NCBI GenBank assembly: GCA_001890965.1
Contig: MLAY01000008.1
Location: 424,341-488,340, forward strand
Reading direction: 5' to 3'
DNA: 64,000 bases
From: a marine bacterium AO1-C
GTDB lineage: Bacteria; Bacteroidota; Bacteroidia; Cytophagales; Microscillaceae
Shown here piece after piece: positions 1,792 to 23,143 of the stretch. A model generated the notes under the pieces. The model did not search any database, was not told the DNA's origin, and saw only the letters and a program-made list of their open reading frames with translations. Position 1 is the first letter of the stretch. Each line of letters starts with the position of its first letter. A program made the translations under genes and the position numbers.

Positions 1792-4311
1792 TTATTTCAC
1801 TTCAAATTTGTAAGTTCCCAATATCACTTTACCCTTCTGGGTCATGCCTTCTACTTCTATTCTATAATTAGCCGATTCGTCGGAGGTAAAAAAGGCTACC
1901 TGGGCTTTACCGTCTTTGTCTAAGGTCACGTTGGGTTTCCAGTACAAAATGCGACGATAATCCAGTTGATCTTTGGAGATTTTTTCAACATCATACTTGG
2001 GCACATAAAACTCTCTCGCTTTCGAATACCCAGGGTGAAACATATTGACTACTGTACCATTAATATTGCTTTCTTCCACAATGCCTGCCCGATCTTTGGT
2101 GTACACTGCCAAAACTCCATTAAAGCCCCTGAAACCATAGATGGCAGCCCGTGAAGTAGATAGTACATCTACATAGGCAATATCTTCTACTCGTATTAAC
2201 GACAAAAATCTATTACTTATGGGGGTATCATCTAACAAAAGCATTGGACAACCTCCACGAATAGACACGCTCTGATAAGGAAATGTTCCCCGTACCCTTA
2301 GTTGAGCTACTCTACCTTGGAGCACATCGAAAATTGAGAGTGCTGAATTTATTATGCCAACATCAAGTTTTGTAAAGTCCACCGTATTGGTCGAATTCAT
2401 ATGTATTTTAGAGAGAATTCTGGCGGGGCGACTACTGGTTACTTTCACCTCTTTCAACAACATTACTTCTGGCTCTAAACCATGTACCGCATTGATACGA
2501 TTGATTTTGTGGGTACGATCCAGCAATGCATCTTTGTTGATAATGGTAGGTGATGCATTCGCAAAATAATTGTTAGGCACAGCACTTGGAAATACATTTA
2601 TGTCTTCCAACTTCACAAAAATGTTGGTCTTCTTCTCCTTGATCTTATTTTTTCTCTTTTTCTTAACCAAGCGTACTCCTGTAAATACCAAATTGGTGGT
2701 ATCTTCTATAGGTACATCTTTCAATACAAACAGTCCATTCTTATCGGTGTTTGCTTCTCCTGCCAGTTGTATGTTTTGCTGTGATGTAAACTGTACTTTC
2801 CCTGAAATAACCTTGTCTTCGACATATAGTTTGTACAAACGACCTTTGATCGTAAACCCACCCTCTCGCTCGTATTTCAGTGGACGTAGCGCTAATTGCG
2901 GCATATCGTTCCACTTAAACCTTCTCCAGCCTTGGGTCATCATTAGCAAATCCATTACCTCATGACGGTTTTTATTTTCTTTATTAAAATAATATTCTGG
3001 ATGCTCGATGTGCCCTTTCAAGTCAGACTTGAGCCACATATAATTCTGAATATTCATTTTCTTAGCCTGAGAGGTCTCCAAATCTGTTCGTACAATTGCC
3101 AAAGAAGCCTGACCTTGCACTGGATTTCCCGCAGCATCTTTTAACTCAAGGTCAAAAACTGCCTTTTTCCGATGAGCGAACTTGGTGTCTTTTGAGGTAA
3201 TTGCTACTTTTTGCAAATCTTTTGGGTTTTCTACAAATACCAGTCTTTCGCACTGAGGAACTTTGTTGGCATCGAACAAGGTAAGGTGTATAATACCTGA
3301 AGGAAGGTTCTTTTTGGGAATGCGCCACACAAAACCGGGAGCTGCTTGCTTGTAGGTATGCTTTCCAATCACCTTTCCTCGCACATGCGCTACCACACTG
3401 CTTTGCTCTATAGAATAACCATTACTCACCTGACTCATCACCTGAATGTACTCATCGGTGGAGGTTACTTGCATTTTATGTCCTATGTTTTTACCCTCAG
3501 GCAACGTAAAACCATATTTTTTACCTTGGTAGGTAATCACTGCAGTGTAGGATTGTTGAGGCTTGGGAATGAACATAAACTTACCCATTCCAAACTTTAC
3601 ACTGGAAAAACGAGTCAACTCTTTGCCCTGATTATCTACTATTTTGCCTTGTACTTCTACTCCTTTTCCAGTATGGTCTATGGCCTTGAATGCTACCTGA
3701 TTGGCTAAGTTATCAAGCATTTGTCCTCCTTCGGGGAAAAACTGCATATCGAGATTGAACTTTGTCTTGGGTGATTTTACAACAGTGGTTGATTTCTTAT
3801 TTTTGGTGTCTTCTGTTAAACCTTTAGCTGCTTGATAAGTCTGTGCATCTTTAATAGTTAATACTTTAATTTTCTTGGTAAAAAAGTATTCAAGATCAAA
3901 GTTTTGCATATAACGGGTATAGGCTCTTATCACATATTCGCCCTTGGGCTGATCAAAGGGGATTTTGAAATTACCAGCACCTACACCATTAGCAACTTTC
4001 ACATAACGCTTTAGCACAATTTCTTTCTGCTGATTAATTAGCTCTACATAAGCAATAGTTTGGGAAGCAATGAGTGCATGCGAAGTCGCATTGACCAAAT
4101 ATGCATTGAACCAAACCTGGTCGCCTGCTACATAGCTTGAGCGATCGGTGTGTAAATAAAGCTTCTCTTGGGTTTGTTTTTGATGAAGCTGGTTCAACTG
4201 TTTTGCGGGGTCATTTAATACATTCTCTTGAGCCATTATTGCTGCCGAACACAGGACTAGCAATAACGCTATTGAACATTTAGTAATACTGGGCCGAATG
4301 GGTTCTCTCAT
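1792..4311 (-). CDS. Large secreted protein with a C-terminal TonB-dependent-receptor plug domain and no obvious beta-barrel; it is MG2/carboxypeptidase-regulatory-like followed by a plug
   Basis: Signal peptide; C-terminal block IRGGCPMLLLDDTPISN...IYGFRGFNGVLAVYTK is plug-like. Confidence 0.55.
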   Translation of the reverse strand: MREPIRPSITKCSIALLLVLCSAAIMAQENVLNDPAKQLNQLHQKQTQEKLYLHTDRSSYVAGDQVWFNAYLVNATSHALIASQTIAYVELINQQKEIVLKRYVKVANGVGAGNFKIPFDQPKGEYVIRAYTRYMQNFDLEYFFTKKIKVLTIKDAQTYQAAKGLTEDTKNKKSTTVVKSPKTKFNLDMQFFPEGGQMLDNLANQVAFKAIDHTGKGVEVQGKIVDNQGKELTRFSSVKFGMGKFMFIPKPQQSYTAVITYQGKKYGFTLPEGKNIGHKMQVTSTDEYIQVMSQVSNGYSIEQSSVVAHVRGKVIGKHTYKQAAPGFVWRIPKKNLPSGIIHLTLFDANKVPQCERLVFVENPKDLQKVAITSKDTKFAHRKKAVFDLELKDAAGNPVQGQASLAIVRTDLETSQAKKMNIQNYMWLKSDLKGHIEHPEYYFNKENKNRHEVMDLLMMTQGWRRFKWNDMPQLALRPLKYEREGGFTIKGRLYKLYVEDKVISGKVQFTSQQNIQLAGEANTDKNGLFVLKDVPIEDTTNLVFTGVRLVKKKRKNKIKEKKTNIFVKLEDINVFPSAVPNNYFANASPTIINKDALLDRTHKINRINAVHGLEPEVMLLKEVKVTSSRPARILSKIHMNSTNTVDFTKLDVGIINSALSIFDVLQGRVAQLRVRGTFPYQSVSIRGGCPMLLLDDTPISNRFLSLIRVEDIAYVDVLSTSRAAIYGFRGFNGVLAVYTKDRAGIVEESNINGTVVNMFHPGYSKAREFYVPKYDVEKISKDQLDYRRILYWKPNVTLDKDGKAQVAFFTSDESANYRIEVEGMTQKGKVILGTYKFEVK

Positions 4312-4992
4312 AAAATTTATATTTGGGTAAAATCAAGAAGTTTAGTAAATGGGATGTGTATACTTATAGGATTGTATAATTGAAATATCGCCCCTATAAA
4401 GATTGTTTAAAATTACAATTGACAGGCAACCTGATCATATTCCAGTATAACAGTGAGGCTAAATATAAGTGGTTAATGATGTGTTTCATGTGGGTAGTTG
4501 TTTTAGAATTTAGATGAATTTATTTTTATGATCTTATAGTGAAGATAGGTTATCAAATTCATCGCCCCTATATCAAAAATTGGTTTTATAGATTCGAGGG
4601 GATTTTGTAGAGGAAGTATGACTTATTTTTATATCAAAAGTATTTTTATTTGATTTTGCAGGTAAAGTGAAAATATGCTTCTCAACACAATCATTTCTTG
4701 AGCACTTGTTCTCTACTAGCCCAGAACCTTGTTTGAATTTTTATTTCACAATTAACTCAAAACACCAAATTAAACCTTCCAAAAATCCTTATTTAGGTCG
4801 TCTATGTTTTGTCTATGCGCGAAAATTGTCTCTCCCACAAGTGACCTATAATTTTGCTCTTAATAAAAAATCAGTTTTAAGTAAATAAATGAGTGAATTC
4901 AACATTACGTGCTCCTTCGGTGGTAGGAAGGGGCACTAAAATGTTGTAAAACTTCTTAAATACTGAAAGCACATCAATAGCATTTTAGGTAT

Positions 4993-5748
4993 ATGAAATC
5001 ACTGATTAGATCGTCTCTGTATGTCCTTCTTTTTTTGAGTATTATGGTATTCTCTTCCTGCAATCAGGAAAGTGCTGACCCAACTCCTACCTCAAACCAA
5101 ACAATTGGTAGAATATTACCCATAGGAGCCTCGAGGGTGCAAGGCAAGCGCCCTGATCATGAAAGCTACCGATACGACTTGTGGAAAATGCTGGTAAATG
5201 CTGAGAAGAATTTTGATTTTATAGGCTCTCAAATAGATGAAAGTACTTATCTAACTTTTCAAGGAAAGGAGTTTGACAAAGAACATCAAGGTCGGGGCGG
5301 ATTTACCTCAGTGCAAATTCTTGAATTGTTGAGAAACACTATAGACCAGATAGTGGCCGAGTTGGGTGTTCCTGATGTAGTTTTATTGGGAACCCCTGGC
5401 GGAAACGATGGATTGCAAGGTTTACCCTTTGAAAACGCGGTACAAAACACCCACGCCATCATTGATTTGCTCCAGGCAACGAATCCTAATGTAACCATCA
5501 TTATAGAACAAGCGGCTCCCCCTCGCTCCACTTTGAGCAAGGAGTTGATCGCAGATAATGAGCGTATGAACGAAGAAGTCATAAACATTGCAGCAGCTCA
5601 AACCACCAGTACCTCCAAAGTGATCACAGTAGATATGTACACAGGTTTTAGCGATGCCCTTTTAGCCGATGGGGTACACTATAATGCTGCTGGTGCCAGG
5701 TTTATCGCAGAACGATATTTTGAGACACTCAATAACCTTACAGATTAA
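4993..5748 (+). CDS. SGNH/GDSL-family hydrolase lipoprotein
   Basis: Lipobox ...FSSC; DGVHYN block; 251 aa. Confidence 0.7.
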   Translation: MKSLIRSSLYVLLFLSIMVFSSCNQESADPTPTSNQTIGRILPIGASRVQGKRPDHESYRYDLWKMLVNAEKNFDFIGSQIDESTYLTFQGKEFDKEHQGRGGFTSVQILELLRNTIDQIVAELGVPDVVLLGTPGGNDGLQGLPFENAVQNTHAIIDLLQATNPNVTIIIEQAAPPRSTLSKELIADNERMNEEVINIAAAQTTSTSKVITVDMYTGFSDALLADGVHYNAAGARFIAERYFETLNNLTD

Positions 5749-5846
5749 ACTGGTTGATGTCACAAATTGACCAGAAAACAACTACTGATATTGTATCCAA
5801 CATCTAGCAAAATCTATATTTTTTATTACCCAAATTAGTATTACAC

Positions 5847-15180: not shown

Positions 15181-16227
15181 TTATTGATTCATTTTCCTCA
15201 AAATAAATTGTAAAATACTCTCTCCATTAGAGTTGTCCATATTCATCTGAGGGATAACTGCTACGCAGGCCAGACCTGCTTCATTGGCTTTTTCATAAAT
15301 AGCATTGGCATGTAATGGGTGGTGTAATACCGCGCCCTTATGTTCAGGAAACCTATAAGGTGAAGATGATTTGGTGACATAAATCTCAGGATCATTGCTA
15401 TCCATCATGCTTAACATATCTACGGCTTGACGATATGAATCTATTTCGGGAGAATCTAGCTCTTCCATAGAAGACAAGCCGTAAAACTTTAACAAAGTCC
15501 CTTCTCCAACCAGGCTTATAATTGTATCCTGGCTCATTCCTTCGCTTTCATATGTTGAAAAAACAGTGGTATGCCAATTTACCACATCATAAGTAGACTG
15601 GGTATTGGTGGCTATGATGCCTTTCACTTTTGTTGACTCCTTCAGAAACTCATATTGCCCATTTTCATTGGCAAAATCGTCCTGCAACCCAATCCAAAGG
15701 CTGGTTCCTGCTCCTGCCGAACCTCCCATCAGGATAATTTTTTCCTTATCGATATTAAAATCATTGGCATAATATCGAATCACCTGTAGAGCCCTTCTGG
15801 AATCATTCAGGCACTTACGTACCCCTATAGTTTCATTTTCTTCCAATAGACGATAGTTAATCGAGGCAAAGGCTATTTTATTAGCCAGCAGCGAATTGAT
15901 CAATGCTTCCTCTTTTGTGTAAGCTTTTGTTTTATCTCCACTGGTAAAACCTCCCCCATGAATATAGATTACTAATGGAGTAGGCTGGCTAGAAACAGGT
16001 GCCAGAAAGTCAAACTTATGTCTTTCGTCAAAACCATAGGGTATGTCTTCATAAAATGCGGCTTCAGCCGAGGTGTTAACTGGCAAGCTCGCTGTAGGTA
16101 TGAGTTCTAAAGAACCTTGGATAGGAAGATTGTAAGGATCTAATCTGTCAAGCAGGTGTTCATTGTTGGTACATGCAGCAAAAAACGAAATCACGAATAG
16201 TATACATAATGCCTTTTTCATATTCAA
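15181..16227 (-). CDS. Alpha/beta-hydrolase (HSL-family, HGGG motif) esterase/lipase lipoprotein, paralog 1
   Basis: IYIHGGGFTSGDK oxyanion motif; MGGSAGAG nucleophile elbow. Confidence 0.75.
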   Translation of the reverse strand: MNMKKALCILFVISFFAACTNNEHLLDRLDPYNLPIQGSLELIPTASLPVNTSAEAAFYEDIPYGFDERHKFDFLAPVSSQPTPLVIYIHGGGFTSGDKTKAYTKEEALINSLLANKIAFASINYRLLEENETIGVRKCLNDSRRALQVIRYYANDFNIDKEKIILMGGSAGAGTSLWIGLQDDFANENGQYEFLKESTKVKGIIATNTQSTYDVVNWHTTVFSTYESEGMSQDTIISLVGEGTLLKFYGLSSMEELDSPEIDSYRQAVDMLSMMDSNDPEIYVTKSSSPYRFPEHKGAVLHHPLHANAIYEKANEAGLACVAVIPQMNMDNSNGESILQFILRKMNQ

Positions 16228-16365
16228 ATAGTGATTAAAACTGAAACGTATAAATTGTATAATTTAAAGCGAATAAGTGCTCAAAACCTTTTTAAAACAC
16301 AGGTTCATTGCACATTTAACACATATACAATTTACGATTCTTGTTAGGCATCAGAAAGTTTTCCA

Positions 16366-16397
16366 CATAGACAAAATATGTACAATTCAAATTTCTC
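16366..16397 (-). promoter_or_regulatory. Conserved upstream element (catagacaaaatatgtacaa..caaatttctc) about 140 bp upstream of esterase paralog 1
   Basis: Near-identical copy at 18971..19002. Confidence 0.45.
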
Positions 16398-16550
16398 TTT
16401 GAATATTTTAAAGGCCTGCAGTGATCAATATTGATCGGGTATTAGAACTCATCTCGACTTCATATTCTAAAAAGCAAAAACTCGCCCTGACAGTAAAAAG
16501 TCAAAACGAGTTCATTAAACATAAAATGGTACTATGCTATACTCAAGGTA

Positions 16551-17576
16551 TTAGTTACCTATTTTCCTTAAAACAAAATTGGTAATGCTTTCTCCGTTAG
16601 AATTATCGATGTTCATTTGTGGGATAATAGCCACACAAGCCACTCCTGTTGCGCTGGCTTTATCCATCAACACTTTGGCATGTAACGGATGGTGTAATAC
16701 TGCACTTTTATCGGCTGGAAATCGGTAAGGAGCACCTGGTCTTGATACGTAGATTTCAGGATCATCGCCAGACATCAGGCTTAGCATATCTGCATCCATT
16801 CTTTTTTGTACCACTGTAGGCGAAGTGAGTTCGCTTAAAGAAGACATTCCATAAAATTGCAACACTGTTCCCTCCTCTACCAAGCTCACCACAGTGTCTT
16901 GATCCATACCTTGTGATGCGTATTCTGAAAATACGGTAGTATGCCAATCTGCCACGTCATAAGTAGACTGGGTATTCACCGCAATAATTCCTTGTACTCT
17001 TGTAGATTCTTTCAATATATCATCGGTAGCATTCGCATCGGCCAATTCATTGTTCAAACCAATCCACAAACTGGTTCCCGCTCCAGCAGAACTACCCATT
17101 AATACCACTTTATTTTTATCAATATTAAAAGAGCTGGCATAATACCTTATAAACTGAAGCGCTGTTTTAGAGTCATTCAAAGGCTTAAGTACTCCTTCGG
17201 TTTCGCTTGCCCCCTGTAATAAGCGATAATTTATCGTAGCGAAAGCAATGTTGTTAGACAAAAACGAATTGATTAAAGCTTCTTCATTATATATATCTTC
17301 TTTGTTGCCTGCAGTAAAGCCACCTCCGTGAATATAAATTACTAATGGAGTTGCCTGTGAAGACTCTGGGGCAAAAAAATCAAACACGTTTCTATTGTCT
17401 GAACCATAAGATACGTCCTTGTAAAAATTTACTTGTGCCGTAGTAGTAATGGGCGATTGAGACGCTGTAAGTGCTAGAGTAGGCACCTCGTTTTGAGGAG
17501 TAGGATCATCTCCTTCATTGTTATTACAGGAGGCAAAAAATAAAATAATAGCAAGTAAGTATACAGCGTTTTTCAT
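16551..17576 (-). CDS. Alpha/beta-hydrolase (HSL-family) esterase/lipase lipoprotein, paralog 2
   Basis: Same motifs; likely start at MKNAVYLL (17576). Confidence 0.75.
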   Translation of the reverse strand: MKNAVYLLAIILFFASCNNNEGDDPTPQNEVPTLALTASQSPITTTAQVNFYKDVSYGSDNRNVFDFFAPESSQATPLVIYIHGGGFTAGNKEDIYNEEALINSFLSNNIAFATINYRLLQGASETEGVLKPLNDSKTALQFIRYYASSFNIDKNKVVLMGSSAGAGTSLWIGLNNELADANATDDILKESTRVQGIIAVNTQSTYDVADWHTTVFSEYASQGMDQDTVVSLVEEGTVLQFYGMSSLSELTSPTVVQKRMDADMLSLMSGDDPEIYVSRPGAPYRFPADKSAVLHHPLHAKVLMDKASATGVACVAIIPQMNIDNSNGESITNFVLRKIGN

Positions 17577-17820
17577 AACCTGATGATTGTAAAAATTGAA
17601 AATAATTCCCCTCAACATTCGTAGTATTTTGGTAAAAAACTCTTATCTATATGAAGTCGAGATGACTCCTATTTTTAAAAACATATTTTGAATACAATAG
17701 TTTATGTATAGCAATACACGATGACCAGAAAAGCTATGTTAAAACAACATACAAGCAAAAATGTAGATATTTATAAAGGGGGCTTGTTGCGTTCCTGAAT
17801 AAGTGCAACAATTACCATTT

Positions 17821-18840
17821 TTAATTGCCTATCTTTCTTACAATAAAGGCCTCAATACTTTCTCCGTTAGAATTATCGATGTTCATCTGTGGAATTACCG
17901 CTACACAAGTAATCCCTCTTTCGCTGGCTTTATCCATCAATGCTTTGGCATGCAATGGGTGGTGCAATACCGATCCATAACTTGGAGGGAATAAATACGG
18001 CCCGCGATTGTTTACATAAATCTCAGGATCATCACTCGTCATTACATTGAACATATCTACTCTTTGTCGGTATTGGTCTGTTTCGGGGGTATTGATCTGT
18101 TCCACAGAAGACAAGCCATAAAATGTCAAAAACGTTGATTCTCCTGCCATATCCATAATAAATTCATCACTCATGCCTTGGCCTTGGTATTCCGAAAACA
18201 CCGCAGTATCCCAGGATAGCACATCATAAGTAGATTGCGTATTGGTAGCAATAATCGCCTGTACTCTGGTTGACTCTCTCTGAATCTCATCGGTCGCATT
18301 AGGATCAGCCAAATCATTATTTAACCCAATCCAAAGACTGGTTCCTGCTCCAGCAGAACCACCCATTAAGGCTACTTTGTTTTTATCAATATTGAAAGCA
18401 CTGGCATAATATCTTATGAACTGAAGCGCAGTTTTAGAGTCGTTCAAAGATTTTATTACTCCTTCAGTTTCGTTTTCTCCAAGCAAGCGATAATTAACCG
18501 TAGCAAAGGCAATTCCTTTATCCAATAAGGAGTTGATAAATGCCTGATCATTGTATATGGCTCTTTTGTCGCCACCAGTAAAACCACCTCCGTGGATGTA
18601 GATTAATAAAGGGGTGGGCTGGTCTGATGTAGGCGCAAAGAAGTCAAACGCATTCTTTTCGTCTGCACCATAAGATACATCCTGGTAAAATTTAACTGCT
18701 GTAGTGGTATTAAAGGGAGTATTGGATGTAGTGAGCGCTAATGTTGGCGCTTCTGACTGGGGTGTGGGTTCATCGGTTGTTTCTTGACTACAAGAAGCAA
18801 AAAATAAAATTACTGCTAGTAAATATACAGCCTTTTTCAT
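17821..18840 (-). CDS. Alpha/beta-hydrolase (HSL-family) esterase/lipase lipoprotein, paralog 3
   Basis: Same motifs; closely related to paralog 2 (N-terminal MKKAVYLLAVILFFASC). Confidence 0.75.
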   Translation of the reverse strand: MKKAVYLLAVILFFASCSQETTDEPTPQSEAPTLALTTSNTPFNTTTAVKFYQDVSYGADEKNAFDFFAPTSDQPTPLLIYIHGGGFTGGDKRAIYNDQAFINSLLDKGIAFATVNYRLLGENETEGVIKSLNDSKTALQFIRYYASAFNIDKNKVALMGGSAGAGTSLWIGLNNDLADPNATDEIQRESTRVQAIIATNTQSTYDVLSWDTAVFSEYQGQGMSDEFIMDMAGESTFLTFYGLSSVEQINTPETDQYRQRVDMFNVMTSDDPEIYVNNRGPYLFPPSYGSVLHHPLHAKALMDKASERGITCVAVIPQMNIDNSNGESIEAFIVRKIGN

Positions 18841-19634: not shown

Positions 19635-19676
19635 CATAAAAAAACCATTGCCTAACAACCTGTTAAACAATGGTTT
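19635..19676 (-). terminator. Minus-strand Rho-independent terminator at the distal end of the tRNA array
   Basis: aaaccattg...caatggttt stem followed by T7 on the minus strand. Confidence 0.6.
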
Positions 19677-19689
19677 ACATCGTAATCAA

Positions 19690-19839
19690 AAAAGGGGTAA
19701 CCAACGATCAGTGAATTAGTACTTTACCATTAAGCTACGAGGCCTTATGATTGGCTTGATCGTAAGGAGGCCCCGGTGGGAATCGAACCCACATCTCATC
19801 ATTAAAAGTGACGCGAAGTAACACTCATCTACGACACCC
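19690..19839 (-). ncRNA. Permuted/split tRNA-like unit a (Lys-like, anticodon TTT). Order on the minus strand: 26-nt leader, anticodon arm, T-arm, acceptor 3' strand CGGGGCC, 24-nt loop, acceptor 5' strand GGCCTCG, TA, D-arm, trailer
   Basis: Perfect 7-bp acceptor complementarity across the loop; canonical T-loop TTCGATT. Confidence 0.5.
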
Positions 19840-19842
19840 TTT

Positions 19843-19918
19843 TGGTTCGCCCGGTAGGATTCGAACCTACGGCCCTCTGATTAAGAGTCAGATGCTCTAC
19901 CAACTAAGCTACGAGCGA
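19843..19918 (-). tRNA. tRNA-Lys(CTT)
   Basis: Cloverleaf, anticodon loop CTCTTAA, CCA encoded. Confidence 0.85.
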
Positions 19919-19924
19919 ATTTCT

Positions 19925-20107
19925 ACAAGCAATATATCTGTAGAAAGGTTTATAAAAACAAGAGGTAACAAGCGGTAAGTGTACATAAAAACATTCTATC
20001 CAATTAAACTACAGGGGCATTATAATATATATTAGTGCCCCTGGCGGGATTCGAACCCGCACCTCATGATTTGGAGTCACGCGAAGTAACACTCACCTAC
20101 GACACTC
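19925..20107 (-). ncRNA. Permuted/split tRNA-like unit b (Trp-like, anticodon CCA). Acceptor 3' strand CAGGGGC, loop ACTAATATATATTATAAT, acceptor 5' strand GCCCCTG, D-arm. An 11-bp leader:trailer helix forms between GGTGAGTGTTAC and GTACACTTACC
   Basis: Sequence pairing read directly. Confidence 0.5.
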
Positions 20108-20109
20108 TT

Positions 20110-20185
20110 TGGTTCGTCCGGTGGGACTCGAACCCACAACCTTCCGGTTAAAAGCCGGGAACTCTACCAATTAAGCTACGAACGA
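20110..20185 (-). tRNA. tRNA-Lys(TTT)
   Basis: Anticodon loop CTTTTAA; CCA encoded. Confidence 0.85.
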
Positions 20186-20188
20186 ATG

Positions 20189-20263
20189 TGGCGGGAATGG
20201 CAGGAATCGAACCTGCGTCCGCTGTTTAACAGACAGCCGCTAGAACCACTCAGCTACACTCCC
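20189..20263 (-). tRNA. tRNA-Asn(GTT)
   Basis: Anticodon loop CTGTTAA; CCA encoded. Confidence 0.85.
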
Positions 20264-20300
20264 AAATTGTAGACCTGACCAATGCCAGGTCTATTATTTG

Positions 20301-20373
20301 CGCGGATGGAAGGAATCGAACCCTCACCTCTGGTGTTGGAGACCAGCATTCTAAAACATTGAACTACACCCGC
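20301..20373 (-). tRNA. tRNA-Trp(CCA)
   Basis: Anticodon loop CTCCAAC. Confidence 0.8.
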
Positions 20374-20521
20374 AGTACAAAAGAGGTTACAAGCAATAAG
20401 TGAACGTTTGCTGCTCTACCTACTGAGCTACTCTCGTGAGTAATTAAGTTTGCACGAGAGGTGGGACTCGAACCCACGACCCACCGATTAACTGTCGAAG
20501 TAACACTCATTTACGACACTC
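20374..20521 (-). ncRNA. Permuted/split tRNA-like unit c. Acceptor 3' strand CTCTCGT, loop, acceptor 5' strand ACGAGAG, D-arm GCTCAGTAGGTAGAGC. The anticodon arm is degenerate.
   Basis: Acceptor pairs across the loop; T-arm GTGGGTTCGAGTCCCAC. Confidence 0.45.
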
Positions 20522-20524
20522 TTT

Positions 20525-20600
20525 TGGTTCGCCTGATGGGACTCGAACCCACGACCCTCTGATTAAAAGTCAGATACTCTACCAACTAAGCTACAAGCGA
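20525..20600 (-). tRNA. tRNA-Lys(TTT)
   Basis: Cloverleaf; CCA encoded. Confidence 0.85.
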
Positions 20601-20605
20601 ATTTG

Positions 20606-20684
20606 CACGGATGGAAGGAATCGAACCTTCTTCATTATTTTTGGGCTTTTGGAGACCATAGCTCTACCATTGAGCTACATCCGT
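20606..20684 (-). tRNA. tRNA-Trp(CCA)-like variant; the 3' side of the anticodon stem is replaced or extended, so it is possibly a pseudogene
   Basis: Acceptor, D-arm and T-arm intact; anticodon stem unpaired. Confidence 0.5.
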
Positions 20685-20737
20685 GTATAGTTATTTTCTC
20701 AAACCTGTCAGAATTCTAAACCCGACAGGGTTAAAAG

Positions 20738-20811
20738 TTCGTCCGGTGGGACTCGAACCCACGACCTTCTGATTAAAAGTCAGATGCTCTACGCAACTAA
20801 GCTACGAACGA
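20738..20811 (-). tRNA. tRNA-Lys(TTT)
   Basis: Cloverleaf; no CCA. Confidence 0.8.
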
Positions 20812-20814
20812 ATG

Positions 20815-20889
20815 TGGCGGGAATGGCAGGAATCGAACCTGCGTCCGCTGTTTAACAGACAGCCGCTAAAACCACTCAGCTACACTCCC
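20815..20889 (-). tRNA. tRNA-Asn(GTT)
   Basis: Cloverleaf. Confidence 0.85.
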
Positions 20890-20926
20890 AAATTGTAGAC
20901 CTGACCAATATCAAGTCCATCATTCG

Positions 20927-20997
20927 CACGGATGGAAGGAATCGAACCCTCGTCGTTGGTTTTGGAGACCATAGCTCTACCATTGAGCTACATCCGT
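20927..20997 (-). tRNA. tRNA-Trp(CCA)
   Basis: Anticodon loop CTCCAAA. Confidence 0.8.
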
Positions 20998-21050
20998 GTA
21001 TAGTTATTTTATCAGACCTGTCAGAATTTTAAACCCGACAGGGTTAAAAG

Positions 21051-21124
21051 TTCGTCCGGTGGGATTCGAACCCACGACCTTCTGATTAAAAGTCAGATGC
21101 TCTACGCAACTAAGCTACGAACGA
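21051..21124 (-). tRNA. tRNA-Lys(TTT)
   Basis: Cloverleaf. Confidence 0.8.
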
Positions 21125-21127
21125 ATG

Positions 21128-21202
21128 TGGCGGGAATGGCAGGGATCGAACCTGCGTCCGCTGTTTAACAGACAGCCGCTAAAACCACTCAGCTACACTC
21201 CC
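21128..21202 (-). tRNA. tRNA-Asn(GTT)
   Basis: Cloverleaf. Confidence 0.85.
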
Positions 21203-21239
21203 AAATTGTAGACCTGACCAATGCCAGGTCTATTATTTG

Positions 21240-21312
21240 CGCGGATGGAAGGAATCGAACCCTCACCTCTGGTGTTGGAGACCAGCATTCTAAAACATTG
21301 AACTACACCCGC
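21240..21312 (-). tRNA. tRNA-Trp(CCA)
   Basis: Cloverleaf. Confidence 0.8.
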
Positions 21313-21460
21313 AGTACAAAAGAGGTTACAAGCAATAAGTGAACGTTTGCTGCTCTACCTACTGAGCTACTCTCGTGAGTAATTAAGTTTGCACGAGAGG
21401 TGGGACTCGAACCCACGACCCACCGATTAACTGTCGAAGTAACACTCATTTACGACACTC
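21313..21460 (-). ncRNA. Permuted/split tRNA-like unit c' (duplicate of unit c)
   Basis: Near-identical to 20374..20521. Confidence 0.45.
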
Positions 21461-21463
21461 TTT

Positions 21464-21539
21464 TGGTTCGCCTGGTGGGACTCGAACCCACGACCCTCTG
21501 ATTAAAAGTCAGATACTCTACCAACTAAGCTACAAGCGA
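21464..21539 (-). tRNA. tRNA-Lys(TTT)
   Basis: Cloverleaf. Confidence 0.85.
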
Positions 21540-21544
21540 ATTTG

Positions 21545-21624
21545 CACGGATGGAAGGAATCGAACCTTCTTCACTATTTTTTTGGGTTTTGGAGACCATA
21601 GCTCTACCATTGAGCTACATCCGT
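21545..21624 (-). tRNA. tRNA-Trp(CCA)-like variant (duplicate of 20606..20684)
   Basis: Anticodon stem disrupted. Confidence 0.5.
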
Positions 21625-21637
21625 GTGTAATTATTTG

Positions 21638-21709
21638 CGGGAATGGTAGGGTTCGAACCTACGTGTGTCCGCTTAACAGGCGGGTGCTAAACCACTCAGC
21701 TACACTCCC
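21638..21709 (-). tRNA. tRNA-Asn(GTT) variant with a divergent anticodon stem and T-arm
   Basis: Anticodon loop CTGTTAA. Confidence 0.7.
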
Positions 21710-21753
21710 AAGTTTTATTATTTTTTATTTGGTTCACTTATTTGTGGATGGCA

Positions 21754-21787
21754 TAAAAAAACCTCTTTGCGAATAACAAAGAGGTTT
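21754..21787 (-). terminator. Minus-strand terminator separating the upstream tRNA set from the duplicated Lys-Asn-Trp blocks
   Basis: aacctctttg...caaagaggtt stem followed by T7 on the minus strand. Confidence 0.6.
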
Positions 21788-21963
21788 AGCAGTATTCATA
21801 GAATATAAGAATAATACAACAAACTTCTTTATCACTCCAGGCAGTTACCCCACCACTTTTTATAATTCTTGTATTTATTATTATTCCAGTTCATTGCTAT
21901 AAATATTTTATATTAAAGTTAAAACTTACATTGTACTTTTTAAAAGATATAATAACCCTGTAG

Positions 21964-22036
21964 TTGCGTCAGAAGGAGTCGAACCCTCACCTTCTGGGTC
22001 GAAACCAGAAATTCTAATCCATTAAACTATGACGCA
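21964..22036 (-). tRNA. tRNA-Arg(TCG)
   Basis: Anticodon loop TTTCGAC. Confidence 0.8.
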
Positions 22037-22050
22037 ATATGTAATTCCAG

Positions 22051-22123
22051 TTGCGCTGGAAGGAGTCGAACCCTCATCCTCCGGGTAGAAACCGGACATT
22101 CTAATCCATTGAACTACAGCGCA
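22051..22123 (-). tRNA. tRNA-Arg(TCT)
   Basis: Anticodon loop TTTCTAC. Confidence 0.8.
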
Positions 22124-22137
22124 ATATGTAACTCTAG

Positions 22138-22210
22138 TTGCGCTGGAAGGAATCGAACCTTCATCTCATGCTTCGTAGACAAGTGTTCTAATCCGTTGAA
22201 CTACAGCGCA
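22138..22210 (-). tRNA. tRNA-Arg(ACG)
   Basis: Anticodon loop CTACGAA. Confidence 0.75.
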
Positions 22211-22215
22211 AGGTG

Positions 22216-22289
22216 GCACTCCGTTGGGAATCGAACCCAATTGCCCTGTTTCACAGACAGGGGCGTCAACCATTTTCGCCTCAGAGTGC
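22216..22289 (-). tRNA. tRNA-His(GTG) with G-1
   Basis: Anticodon loop CTGTGAA; an extra 5' G pairs with C73. Confidence 0.8.
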
Positions 22290-22298
22290 ATATATATG

Positions 22299-22372
22299 TC
22301 GGATAGGCAGGATTCGAACCTACGTGCTCTGGCATCCCGGGCCAGCGAAGACGACCACTCTTCCACTATCCG
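22299..22372 (-). tRNA. tRNA-Pro(GGG) with an unusual C33
   Basis: Acceptor CGGATAG; anticodon loop CCGGGAT. Confidence 0.65.
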
Positions 22373-22401
22373 ATATTCAAAGTATGTTGTTCATACTTTT
22401 G

Positions 22402-22475
22402 TCGGATAGGCAGGGTTCGAACCTGCGTTCTCTGGAGTCCAAGACCAGCGAGGATGACCACTCCTCCACTATCCG
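22402..22475 (-). tRNA. tRNA-Pro(TGG)
   Basis: Anticodon loop CTTGGAC. Confidence 0.8.
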
Positions 22476-22505
22476 ATTATAAATCTCTAATTATCAGTGT
22501 TTTAG

Positions 22506-22579
22506 TCGGATAGGCAAGATTCGAACTTGCGTACTCTAGTACCCAAAACTAGCGAGATAAACCACTCCTCTACTATCCG
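22506..22579 (-). tRNA. tRNA-Pro(TGG)-like (G37; 3-bp D-stem)
   Basis: Anticodon loop TTTGGGT. Confidence 0.6.
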
Positions 22580-22585
22580 ATGATT

Positions 22586-22662
22586 TGGTGTACCCTGAAG
22601 GATTTGAACCTTCAATCCCCTGGGTATGAGCCAGGTGCTTTCACCATTTAAGCTAAGGGTAC
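22586..22662 (-). tRNA. tRNA-Met(CAT), elongator type (possibly Ile2)
   Basis: Anticodon loop CTCATAC; G1-C72; CCA encoded. Confidence 0.8.
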
Positions 22663-22680
22663 TGCTGTGACCATTGGCTA

Positions 22681-22718
22681 CAAAAAAAGCCTTACTTCAA
22701 TTGAGGCAAGGCTTTTTG
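22681..22718. terminator. Bidirectional Rho-independent terminator
   Basis: aaagcctt...aaggcttt stem flanked by an A-run and a T-run. Confidence 0.6.
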
Positions 22719-22888
22719 GAGATGGGTAATCTCTACGGTTTACTGCAGTCATAGCAGTAGCCTTGCCGTTTTGGGTTTCTTTATCCGTATCGGATGCCAA
22801 CGGTGTTTTCTATTAATGGTGTTATATCTTGTCGGGACAATCATTGTTATCTTGTTTTCTATATTATTTTGCTTCAAATTTCTTTTAG

Positions 22889-22961
22889 AGCACCCACAAG
22901 GAATCGAACCTTGATCCACTGATTACAAGTCAGTTATTCTAAGCCGTTGAACTACAGGTGC
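22889..22961 (-). tRNA. tRNA-Thr(TGT)
   Basis: Anticodon loop CTTGTAA. Confidence 0.8.
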
Positions 22962-22985
22962 TTATATTATTCATCATTTGCTTGG

Positions 22986-23058
22986 AGCACCTACAAGGAA
23001 TCGAACCTTGATCCATTGATTACTAAACAATAATTTTAAACCGTTAAACTATAGGTGC
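22986..23058 (-). tRNA. tRNA-Thr-like with an atypical anticodon loop (TTAGTAA gives AGT, or a 9-nt loop); possibly a pseudogene
   Basis: Paralog of 22889..22961. Confidence 0.5.
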
Positions 23059-23066
23059 TATTACTC

Positions 23067-23143
23067 TGGTATGCTCTGGGGGACTCGAACCCCCGATTAC
23101 TTGTGTATCAGACAAGTGCCTTGACCAACTTGGCTAAGAGCAT
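23067..23143 (-). tRNA. tRNA-Ile(GAT)
   Basis: Anticodon loop CTGATAC; CCA encoded. Confidence 0.85.

Follow-up and report, generated by a model that had tools for sequence, protein, structure and literature searches.

Layout of the array

The stretch of the marine bacterium AO1-C genome analyzed here (contig MLAY01000008.1; 64 kb, hereafter the window, to which all window coordinates refer) contains an array of transfer RNA (tRNA) genes on the minus strand (19,690–23,143; 27 ARAGORN calls). The distal 2.1 kb of this array (21,709 to 19,688) holds only tRNA-Lys, tRNA-Asn, and tRNA-Trp genes and four tRNA-like units of about 150 nt (U1–U4), each on the minus strand and directly behind a CCA-encoding tRNA-Lys. 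These units, and their relation to the Y RNAs that are bound by the Ro60 protein (Rsr), are the subject of this work.

The tRNA-Lys genes were placed with ARAGORN and with the Rfam tRNA model, the four unit-bearing genes scoring 65.8–73.9 bits: tRNA-Lys(CUU) upstream of U1 (19843..19918, 73.9 bits), and tRNA-Lys(UUU) upstream of U2 (20110..20185, 65.8 bits), U3 (20525..20600, 70.8 bits), and U4 (21464..21539, 72.6 bits), all on the minus strand. Each of the four ends in the discriminator A followed by CCA, and the leaders of the units start at 19839 (U1), 20107 (U2), 20521 (U3), and 21460 (U4). The junction positions given in a preliminary description of this DNA (19843/19839, 20110/20107, 20525/20521, 21464/21460) were confirmed by ARAGORN, by the Rfam tRNA model, and by the sequence itself. 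The same description had reported CCA, AAA, and leader in succession at all four junctions; CCA is indeed encoded in all of them and the spacer is AAA for U1, U3, and U4, but U2 has AA only (20109–20108). An internal contrast is provided by a tRNA-Lys(UUU) at 20737..20811 and a second tRNA-Lys at 21050–21124 (minus strand; ARAGORN and sequence), both without encoded CCA and without a unit behind them, giving encoded CCA in 4/4 tRNA-Lys with a unit vs 0/2 without one. In place of a Y RNA unit, a conserved CCUGUC...GACAGG hairpin is found within 50 nt downstream of each of these two genes.

Spacers of 3–4 nt are the norm between all tRNAs of the array, as called by ARAGORN. A segmental duplication (20168–20604 vs 21107–21543, 99% identical) carries U3 and U4; these are therefore recent copies, and three independent modules rather than four are to be counted in the window.

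Structure of the units

From 5' to 3', the units are composed of leader, hairpin, variable loop, T arm, acceptor stem-loop, U8-A9 with D arm, and trailer. The conserved leader of 26 nt, G(G/A)GUGUCGUA(RR)UGAGUGUUACUUCG, base-pairs with the trailer, CACU.A..G(C/U)UUG(U/G)U(A/U)ACC(U/C)CUUUU. The hairpin has 3–5 bp and an anticodon-like loop of 7 nt (CUUUUAA in U1, CUCCAAA in U2, CAGUUAA in U3/U4), the variable loop 4–5 nt, and the T arm is canonical with a T loop UUCRANU; the strands of the 7-bp acceptor stem are joined by a loop of 14–24 nt, and the D arm has the consensus UAGCUYAR..GG..A. All units were scored with RF02553, the Rfam model of the YrlA class of Y RNAs, and with a covariance model of our own (R1), built from 19 units.

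U1 (19688..19842, minus strand) reaches 104.4 bits with R1 and has a partial YrlA match (27.6 bits). In this unit, the AAA spacer and the 5' strand of the basal helix (19842–19837) are followed by the bulged U and a GUCGUA motif (19836–19830), the whole leader covering 19839–19814; next come the anticodon-arm-like hairpin with loop CUUUUAA (19813–19797), the T arm (19792–19776), the acceptor stem of 7 bp with a closing loop of 24 nt (19775–19769 / 19744–19738), the D arm (19735–19721), and the trailer with U6 at its end (19720–19688). U2, with its AA spacer (19958..20109, minus strand; R1 110.1 bits; full-length YrlA match, 29.7 bits, E 1.6e-4), has the loop CUCCAAA, a 7-bp acceptor stem GCCCCUG/CAGGGGC with an 18-nt loop, and the trailer CACUUACCGCUUGUUACCUCUU; its minimum free energy fold recovers the leader/trailer stem. 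U3, with an AAA spacer (20378..20524, minus strand; R1 127.7 bits; full-length YrlA match, 42.6 bits, E 3e-7, or 1e-8 on local search), has the hairpin CGA-CAGUUAA-UCG, an acceptor stem of 7–8 bp, a D arm, and a trailer that stops 5 nt before tRNA-Trp (20373). U4 (21317..21463, minus strand; detected by R1; full-length YrlA match, 42.6 bits) is identical to U3 by way of the segmental duplication.

The likeness to tRNA is strong enough for ARAGORN and the Rfam tRNA model to miscall 19766–19838 (minus strand) in U1, that is, leader, hairpin, T arm, and 3' acceptor strand, as tRNA-Lys(ttt) with 47.6 bits. The same miscall covers the 5' two-thirds of units at 3859–3930 and 4431–4502 (minus strand) of L015, a contig from a metagenome-assembled genome (MAG) of the Microscillaceae; it is an annotation trap, through which such genomes are probably credited with too many tRNAs. 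A tRNA-Lys-type anticodon loop is kept in U1, in units U1' and U3' of L015, and in contig L028 (described below), and U3 shares 22 contiguous identical nucleotides, spanning variable loop and T arm, with the tRNA-Lys adjacent to it upstream. When the tRNA-like cores are compared with the tRNAs of the array, tRNA-Lys is the best match for U1 and U3, but marginally (54–57 identities vs 53–55 for others). We do not take these similarity scores to prove that the cores come from tRNA-Lys; better hints would seem to lie in the CUUUUAA loop and in the identity of 22 nt in U3.

Homologs beside rsr and covariation

The leader sequence GTGTCGTANNTGAGTGTTAC was searched, as an exact match, in about 186,000 species genomes and was found at 18 loci, 16 real and 2 by chance; a scan of viral contigs with the leader gave no match. 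At 15 of the 16 real loci, which belong to Mucilaginibacter, Pedobacter, and Desertivirga (Sphingobacteriaceae) and to Bacteroidota MAGs, an open reading frame (ORF) of about 530 amino acids precedes the unit on the same strand, a few hundred bases away, and Pfam TROVE and vWA_Ro60 domains were detected in 6/6 of those ORFs that were scanned (E 1e-27 to 1e-31). The sixteenth is L015, which is orthologous to the window. At the rsr loci, model R1 detects 5–8 units in tandem at each; in the window its full-length matches number exactly four.

In the rsr loci of Sphingobacteriaceae (L003–L018; e.g., L004 5529–6670 and L003 1918–2944) these 5–8 Y RNA-like units stand directly 3' of rsr and vary in make-up, having T and D arms, a T arm only, or neither. 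In L008, where the two ORFs that follow were scanned, both are RlaP RNA-repair genes; look-alike ORFs occur in several other rsr loci, and a convergent tRNA gene is often present at the far end.

Unguided folding of the family with RNAalifold gives, after a basal helix, a single bulged U that is invariant, then a step of 2 bp, an internal loop of asymmetric shape (CGUA opposite G.UU.U.), a second helix of 8 bp, a T arm, and a D arm. Across 53 distinct units, 97.8% of the cells pair and compensatory changes occur at 22/26 pairs; there are 238 compensatory cells vs 54 ± 8.6 in shuffles and at most 42 with the partners slid, counts to be read in the knowledge that the 53-unit alignment was fitted to the covariance model. 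In a MAFFT alignment, which is not model-fitted, the acceptor stem shows compensatory change at 6/7 pairs. The Levitt pair 15:48 is kept in 34/34 units that have both arms (G:C in 25, A:U in 9; within the window, A:U in U1 and U2, G:C in U3 and U4), and covariation of 15:48 is the argument of Chen et al. 2014 (PMC4201824) for tRNA mimicry.

These data bear on the view that the units are decaying, functionless tRNA pseudogenes left over from duplication of the array. Damaged copies do exist there (tRNA-Trp with 8–9-nt insertions, 20605–20684 and 21544–21624), and the array is highly rearranged between genomes, but the leader is identical over 20+ nt across Bacteroidota families, every helix is maintained by compensatory changes, the Levitt pair covaries in 34/34 units, and the orthologs in three genomes carry compensatory acceptor changes (G1:C72 to A1:U72; C3:G70 to U3:A70). 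We regard simple decay as very improbable.

Two invariant motifs lie in the 5' strand of the family, U-G-Y-CGUA and (Y)UACUUCG. The putative Rsr-site motif of published YrlA RNAs, GNCGAAN0-1G, lies in the 5' strand of the end-paired stem and is accompanied by a YUAY motif (Chen et al. 2014, PMC4201824; Wang et al. 2018, bioRxiv 10.1101/312249). U-G-Y-C-G-U-A agrees with GNCGAA at 5/6 positions, with U for A; (Y)UACUUCG contains the YUAY motif, with UUAC near invariant at columns 26–29. In alignment to RF02553 the YrlA module order is found in the units as well: V hairpin, T arm, acceptor stem-loop, and D arm, with the conserved T and D sequences.

Probable assignment to the YrlA class

Our reading starts from what the sequences show: the anatomy of the units, their kinship with Y RNAs linked to rsr, the covariation, an Rsr encoded in the same genome, and a junction that recurs. 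According to it, the four units are quite probably Y RNA genes of the YrlA (tRNA-like) class and belong to a Bacteroidota subfamily, embedded in an array behind tRNA-Lys, presumably processed by tRNA enzymes, and predicted to be bound by Rsr. The leader/trailer stem should, by homology, be the predicted binding site of the Ro60/Rsr ring protein. Judged from sequence, the Bacteroidota Y RNA subfamily is defined by the bulged U with GYCGUA ... UACUUCG and occurs in up to eight tandem copies beside rsr.

Several points weigh against this assignment. The Rfam scan by E-value gave full-length YrlA matches for U3, U4, and U2 and a partial one for U1, but with 42.6, 42.6, 29.7, and 27.6 bits, respectively, none of them reaches the gathering score of 69; in the 5' motif, GYCGUA stands in place of the GNCGAA of YrlA; and the z-scores of single-sequence folds are modest (−1.0 to −2.7). 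No ORF with a TROVE/Ro60 domain was found in the window with Pfam on the 20 largest ORFs and tblastn with three Rsr and two RlaP proteins, and the units of the window do not lie within 4 kb of rsr, as do their homologs in L003–L018, L025, L028, and L034. Roughly 90 units of rsr loci (about 80 in Sphingobacteriaceae, at least eight in L034) have no tRNA-Lys upstream. No promoter-like site was detected in or beside the junctions by a scan that does not cover Bacteroidota promoters, so that internal promoters may still be present.

As to the scores, rsr-adjacent Bacteroidota units themselves reach only 34–41 bits, and this subfamily is therefore outside the reach of RF02553. The Rfam YrlA matches are in any case not relied upon here, since the T and D portion of YrlA can be mimicked by dimeric tRNAs (Chen et al. 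2014, PMC4201824, methods). As to the distance from rsr, published YrlAs were defined as lying at most 4 kb from rsr on the same strand (Chen et al. 2014, PMC4201824), which is an operational criterion of that study and not a structural one. Marine bacterium AO1-C (Cytophagales), whose UvrA, on a contig of 630 kb, is 100% identical to the UvrA ORF of the window (next best, Microscilla, 88%), encodes a "ribonucleoprotein" of 506 amino acids with TROVE and vWA domains (P0004), located on a different contig of 1.5 Mb. Two loci stand in for the rsr locus of AO1-C, L025 and L034 (Rsr 92% identical); their Rsr proteins are 92–100% identical, and rsr is followed by at least eight Y-like units that alternate with genes for tRNA-Met, Val, Ser, Glu, and Gly, and by an ORF resembling RNA ligase. 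The first of these units has the basal stem CCAAAAGAGUGUCGUA...CCUCUUUUG, the same as that of U3 in the window. The protein partner is therefore present in AO1-C, and the mixing of Y RNA and tRNA genes is normal for the lineage. In L034 (3699–7536, a Microscilla-like rsr locus) the at least eight units stand among genes for tRNA-Met (two), Val, Ser(act), Val, Glu, and Gly, and an ORF at 5279–5845 has weak RNA-ligase (RLIG1) similarity.

The preliminary description had taken the units for permuted tRNA precursors. On that view they would be true circularly permuted tRNA genes, the helix being cut and ligated and the acceptor loop opened to yield tRNA-Lys, tRNA-Trp, and tRNA-Asn. Much of the anatomy is in keeping with it: acceptor stems of 7 bp, T and D arms with the nucleotides of tRNA tertiary pairs, an anticodon-like arm of 5 bp and 7 nt that in U1 and U2 has U33 and A37, and a score of 47.6 bits for the Rfam tRNA model on the 5' part of U1; some YrlAs are, moreover, possibly processed to something closer to canonical tRNAs (Wang et al. 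2018, bioRxiv 10.1101/312249). The anticodon-like loop, however, varies between orthologs: the "anticodon" of U2 is CCA in the window and in the related metagenome contig L029 but UCG in L015, and the loop of U3 is CAGUUAA (A33) in the window vs CUUUUAA in L015. The outer parts form a conserved, covarying stem common to rsr-adjacent Y RNAs and of the type bound by Ro60 in other Y RNAs; the break falls at position 26/27, where the helix is long (17 bp) and sequence-conserved, with a conserved internal loop and no bulge-helix-bulge. The same leader and trailer also serve rsr-adjacent RNAs that have acceptor hairpins of 3 bp or no D arm, and no bacterial counterpart of the splicing endonucleases of eukaryotes and archaea has been described (Wang et al. 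2018, bioRxiv 10.1101/312249). The permuted-tRNA identity is thus not borne out, and we consider it highly unlikely.

Known permuted tRNA genes, those of Cyanidioschyzon merolae, other algae, and Thermofilum pendens, resemble the units in having the 3' half before the 5' half, a looped acceptor stem, and paired ends, but give rise to genuine tRNAs by way of a bulge-helix-bulge at the anticodon-side junction, where they are cut and ligated (Soma 2007, Maruyama 2010, and Chan 2011, as cited by Wang et al. 2018, bioRxiv 10.1101/312249). In the window units, by contrast, the terminal helix is long, conserved, and predicted to bind protein, and the anticodon is not conserved. We know of no permuted-tRNA maturation pathway in bacteria.

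Other candidates were discarded. For a permuted (two-piece) transfer-messenger RNA (tmRNA), RF04321 gave only weak local matches (15–20 bits, T arm and acceptor), ARAGORN finds no tmRNA, and the acceptor stems lack G3:U70. For a phage origin, BLAST of the array against phage genomes matched generic tRNAs only, and the flanking genes are chromosomal Bacteroidota genes. A hammerhead, hairpin, or twister ribozyme, a bulge-helix-bulge, or a group I remnant in leader and trailer has no Rfam support, the internal loop fitting Y RNA stems.

Recurrence of the junction

Nine tRNA-Lys-CCA-A(2–3)-Y RNA modules were found in two deep lineages, and 9/9 units of the array type keep the junction. Besides those of the window, three are in L015 (Lys-UUU then U3', Lys-CUU then U2', Lys-UUU then U1') and one in L029, at the contig end. 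The remaining contig, L028, has the order [Y0]-tRNA-Lys(UUU)-CCA-AA-Y1-rsr-Y2-Y3-tRNA-Met, with Lys, Y1, and rsr on one strand; it has 52% GC, its Rsr is only 53–54% identical to the others, and the second helix of its Y RNA differs. A search of metagenomes for the junction gave no match to a strict pattern and, with a relaxed pattern, mostly ordinary tRNA-Phe genes together with three informative contigs. The tRNA-Lys/unit junction pattern is in excess of chance.

In the modules, the A's of the spacer, and sometimes the A and C of CCA itself, pair with the U-run of the trailer, so that the 3' end of the tRNA abuts the base of the terminal helix of the Y RNA. The ortholog of U2 has a different tRNA-Lys paralog upstream in each of three genomes, with the junction unchanged, and behind Lys(CUU) of L029 the whole of U1 is cleanly missing. 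Comparison of L029 6036–6050 (…GCGAACCA, ATG, TTTTGATTGCG…) with window 19688–19842 shows this to be a presence/absence polymorphism of a whole Y RNA gene. The changing Lys partners and the absence of U1 indicate that the array recombines while the geometry of the junction stays fixed.

The units may accordingly be Y RNAs whose adjacency to tRNA-Lys is a historical trace, an ancestral module having been copied and its partners shuffled by gene conversion, so that any tRNA or spacer would serve. We see in this a serious though less probable alternative. It is in agreement with the recent duplication of U3/U4, with the module being a direct-repeat family (D2), with Lys partners that differ among orthologous units as gene conversion predicts, with the absence of U1 in L029, with spacers of 3–4 nt being normal throughout the array, and with the rsr-locus Y RNAs that lack an upstream tRNA-Lys; these last also show that Lys linkage is not essential to Y RNA biogenesis in general. 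Against it stand the association of encoded CCA with the presence of a unit (4/4 vs 0/2) and the geometry, encoded CCA with 2–3 A's pairing with the U-run, which is kept in the divergent L028 despite an Rsr of 53–54% identity and a different second helix.

A more far-reaching proposal, which we put forward as a doubtful one, is that the module is an ancient selected unit of biogenesis and function and no frozen accident. Here the Bacteroidota Y RNAs would have arisen from tandem tRNA-Lys genes, the copies in the array being near-intermediates in which a Lys anticodon arm survives; processing at the 3' end of tRNA-Lys would generate their 5' ends, and the RNAs could act, once RNase P has opened the 7-bp acceptor stem, as two-piece mimics of tRNA-Lys/Trp with a Ro60 handle. 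If true, the mimics could, for example, tether Rsr to tRNA-specific enzymes or to damaged tRNA-Lys.

Transcription and processing

Two terminator-like hairpins of the intrinsic type, both on the minus strand, bracket the sub-array. The upstream one (21759..21787) splits it from the Ile..Arg tRNA block, and a new transcription unit therefore probably starts between 21759 and 21710. The downstream one follows U1 (19642..19676), with a 16-pair stem and then the U-run TTTTATGAAT, and is conserved in L015 and L029. Inside the Lys/Asn/Trp/unit sub-array (21,709–19,688) no terminator-like site was found. With a gap of 2–3 nt leaving no room for signals, and with terminators on either side, tRNA-Lys and unit are very likely co-transcribed, as the preliminary description had proposed. 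It had named independent promoters or terminators between tRNA-Lys and the units as the observation that would speak against this; none was seen at the junctions, Bacteroidota promoters being outside the reach of the scan. Its further suggestion, that 3' processing of tRNA-Lys creates the 5' end of the unit, is plausible.

On our assignment to the YrlA class, an operon of about 2.1 kb would give rise to a single precursor that is then divided by enzymes of tRNA processing. Endonucleolytic cleavage at the 3' end of tRNA-Lys (between CCA and AAA) would free the 5' end of the Y RNA at the base of its terminal helix. Most units have another tRNA next in the operon, and the 3' end of the Y RNA would be provided by RNase P acting on it, 5 nt past U3 and U4 and beyond a hairpin for U2, whereas that of U1 would be set by the terminator; the 3' ends would then be trimmed back to the U-run. 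The terminal stem is predicted to consist of the basal A:U-rich helix, the invariant bulged U, G-Y-CGUA facing the G..U.U.RC strand, and the second helix, and the middle of the RNA would fold like a tRNA, its acceptor stem closed by a loop. Mature Y RNAs would bind Rsr made from the distant gene. Acceptor stems of 7 bp with long loops would also make opening by RNase P and addition of CCA plausible, by analogy with Mycobacterium smegmatis YrlA.

Linkage of a small RNA to a tRNA is known from plant tRNA-snoRNA (small nucleolar RNA) dicistrons, MALAT1-mascRNA, and gammaherpesvirus tRNA-miRNA (microRNA) genes, in which ends are set by RNase P or RNase Z on the adjoining tRNA or tRNA-like structure; these, however, are eukaryotic or viral systems. 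We know of no bacterial Y RNA whose ends are set in this way; for the units it is a prediction. Of the systems named, the long non-coding RNA case is also cited by Wang et al. 2018 (bioRxiv 10.1101/312249).

Comparison with known Y RNAs and origin

The YrlA Y RNAs (RF02553; Salmonella Typhimurium, M. smegmatis) are bound by Rsr in vivo and modified by TruB and DusA, and some members are cleaved by RNase P; opening by RNase P and CCA addition are documented for M. smegmatis YrlA (Wang et al. 2018, bioRxiv 10.1101/312249). With YrlA as described by Chen et al. 2014 (PMC4201824) and Wang et al. 2018 (bioRxiv 10.1101/312249) the window units share a stem formed by the two ends and bearing a brief conserved motif on its 5' side, the same succession of modules, the YUAY motif, covariation of 15:48, and homologous units beside rsr, and with the RNase P-cleaved M. 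smegmatis RNA, acceptor stems of 7 bp. They differ in the U-bulge with GYCGUA in place of GNCGAA, in the conservation of both strands of the stem, in a V position occupied by a full anticodon-arm look-alike with a tRNA-Lys-type loop, in their location in a tRNA array off the rsr contig with each unit fused to a tRNA-Lys, and in RF02553 scores that, as for rsr-adjacent Bacteroidota units, are far below the gathering score.

Deinococcus radiodurans Yrn1 and metazoan Y RNAs likewise have a Ro60-bound, bulged terminal helix and a 3' U-run, but the T-like and D-like elements of Yrn1 are in the opposite order and metazoan Y RNAs are without a tRNA-like domain. On our reading of the human Y RNA hY1, the 3' CUUG and the 5' G-(Y)-C-(C)-G-A resemble the units, a likeness to be taken as a lead and not as a test.

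Y RNAs adjoin tRNAs in some bacteria (Wang et al. 2018, bioRxiv 10.1101/312249), and in the model of Sim and Wolin 2018, as described in Wang et al. 2018, YrlA derives from a dimeric tRNA transcript, the T arm side being tRNA 1, the D arm side tRNA 2, and the outer parts pairing as the Ro60 site. The units correspond to this model in keeping a recognizable "first tRNA" (called tRNA-Lys by tRNA programs) at normal inter-tRNA spacing behind a real tRNA-Lys. A difference concerns the acceptor stem-loop, which the model derives from the inter-tRNA spacer; in the units the stem looks like the 3' acceptor strand of tRNA 1 plus the 5' acceptor strand of tRNA 2, and the spacer accounts for the loop only. 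The locus may be said to give the dimeric-tRNA model good circumstantial support, because U1 is still called tRNA-Lys(UUU), the loops are of Lys type, U3 has its 22-nt identity, and the spacing is that of ordinary tRNAs. The origin by tandem tRNA duplication that the preliminary description had suggested is in essence this published model and shares its circumstantial support, but the degeneration of the outer halves that it had added is not seen, the outer parts being a conserved covarying stem. The tRNA-likeness of the units could be either ancestral or renewed by gene conversion with the neighboring tRNA-Lys genes.

The units thus belong to an RNA class already described, but their genomic setting is new, and so, probably, is that of their biogenesis. 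Bacterial Y RNAs have so far been found almost only beside Ro60 genes, and overlaps with tandem tRNAs were discarded: Chen et al. 2014 (PMC4201824) dropped candidates that overlapped tandem tRNA genes or lay more than 4 kb from rsr, and loci such as tRNA-array Y RNAs were therefore excluded by design. Members of the family can hide in tRNA arrays far from rsr, in part miscalled as tRNA-Lys by tRNA finders. The locus suggests a route of biogenesis in which the Y RNA is cut out by tRNA-processing enzymes, and we found no clearer illustration at sequence level for the proposal that Y RNAs were born from transcripts of dimeric tRNAs.

Other features of the array and of related loci

No rsr, RlaP, or RtcB-type genes were found in the window by Pfam on the 20 largest ORFs and by tblastn for Rsr and RlaP. 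The tRNA-Trp copies at 20605–20684 and 21544–21624 (minus strand), called by ARAGORN as Leu(caa) (80 nt) and Trp(cca) (81 nt), carry an A-rich insertion of 8–9 nt just 3' of the anticodon loop and are probably pseudo-tRNAs; in each case the gene that follows directly is the tRNA-Lys partner of U3 or U4. In the block at the upstream end of the array (21963–23143, minus strand; Ile, Thr (two), Met, Pro (three), His, Arg (three)), acceptor ends are unusual (e.g., U1:A72 in several tRNAs) and only some of the genes encode CCA; the block resembles an accessory tRNA array more than a housekeeping set.

Three tandem paralogs of a BD-FAE/alpha-beta-hydrolase esterase (15181–18840, minus strand) lie just downstream of the array. 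L029 has one esterase only and is without the 13-kb segment that is seen in the window between an 839-amino-acid gene and the esterases. In a Mucilaginibacter MAG (L016 5150–5228, plus strand), ARAGORN calls a tRNA with an anticodon loop of 8 nt ("tatg") in a Pro-Ile-?-Gln cluster.

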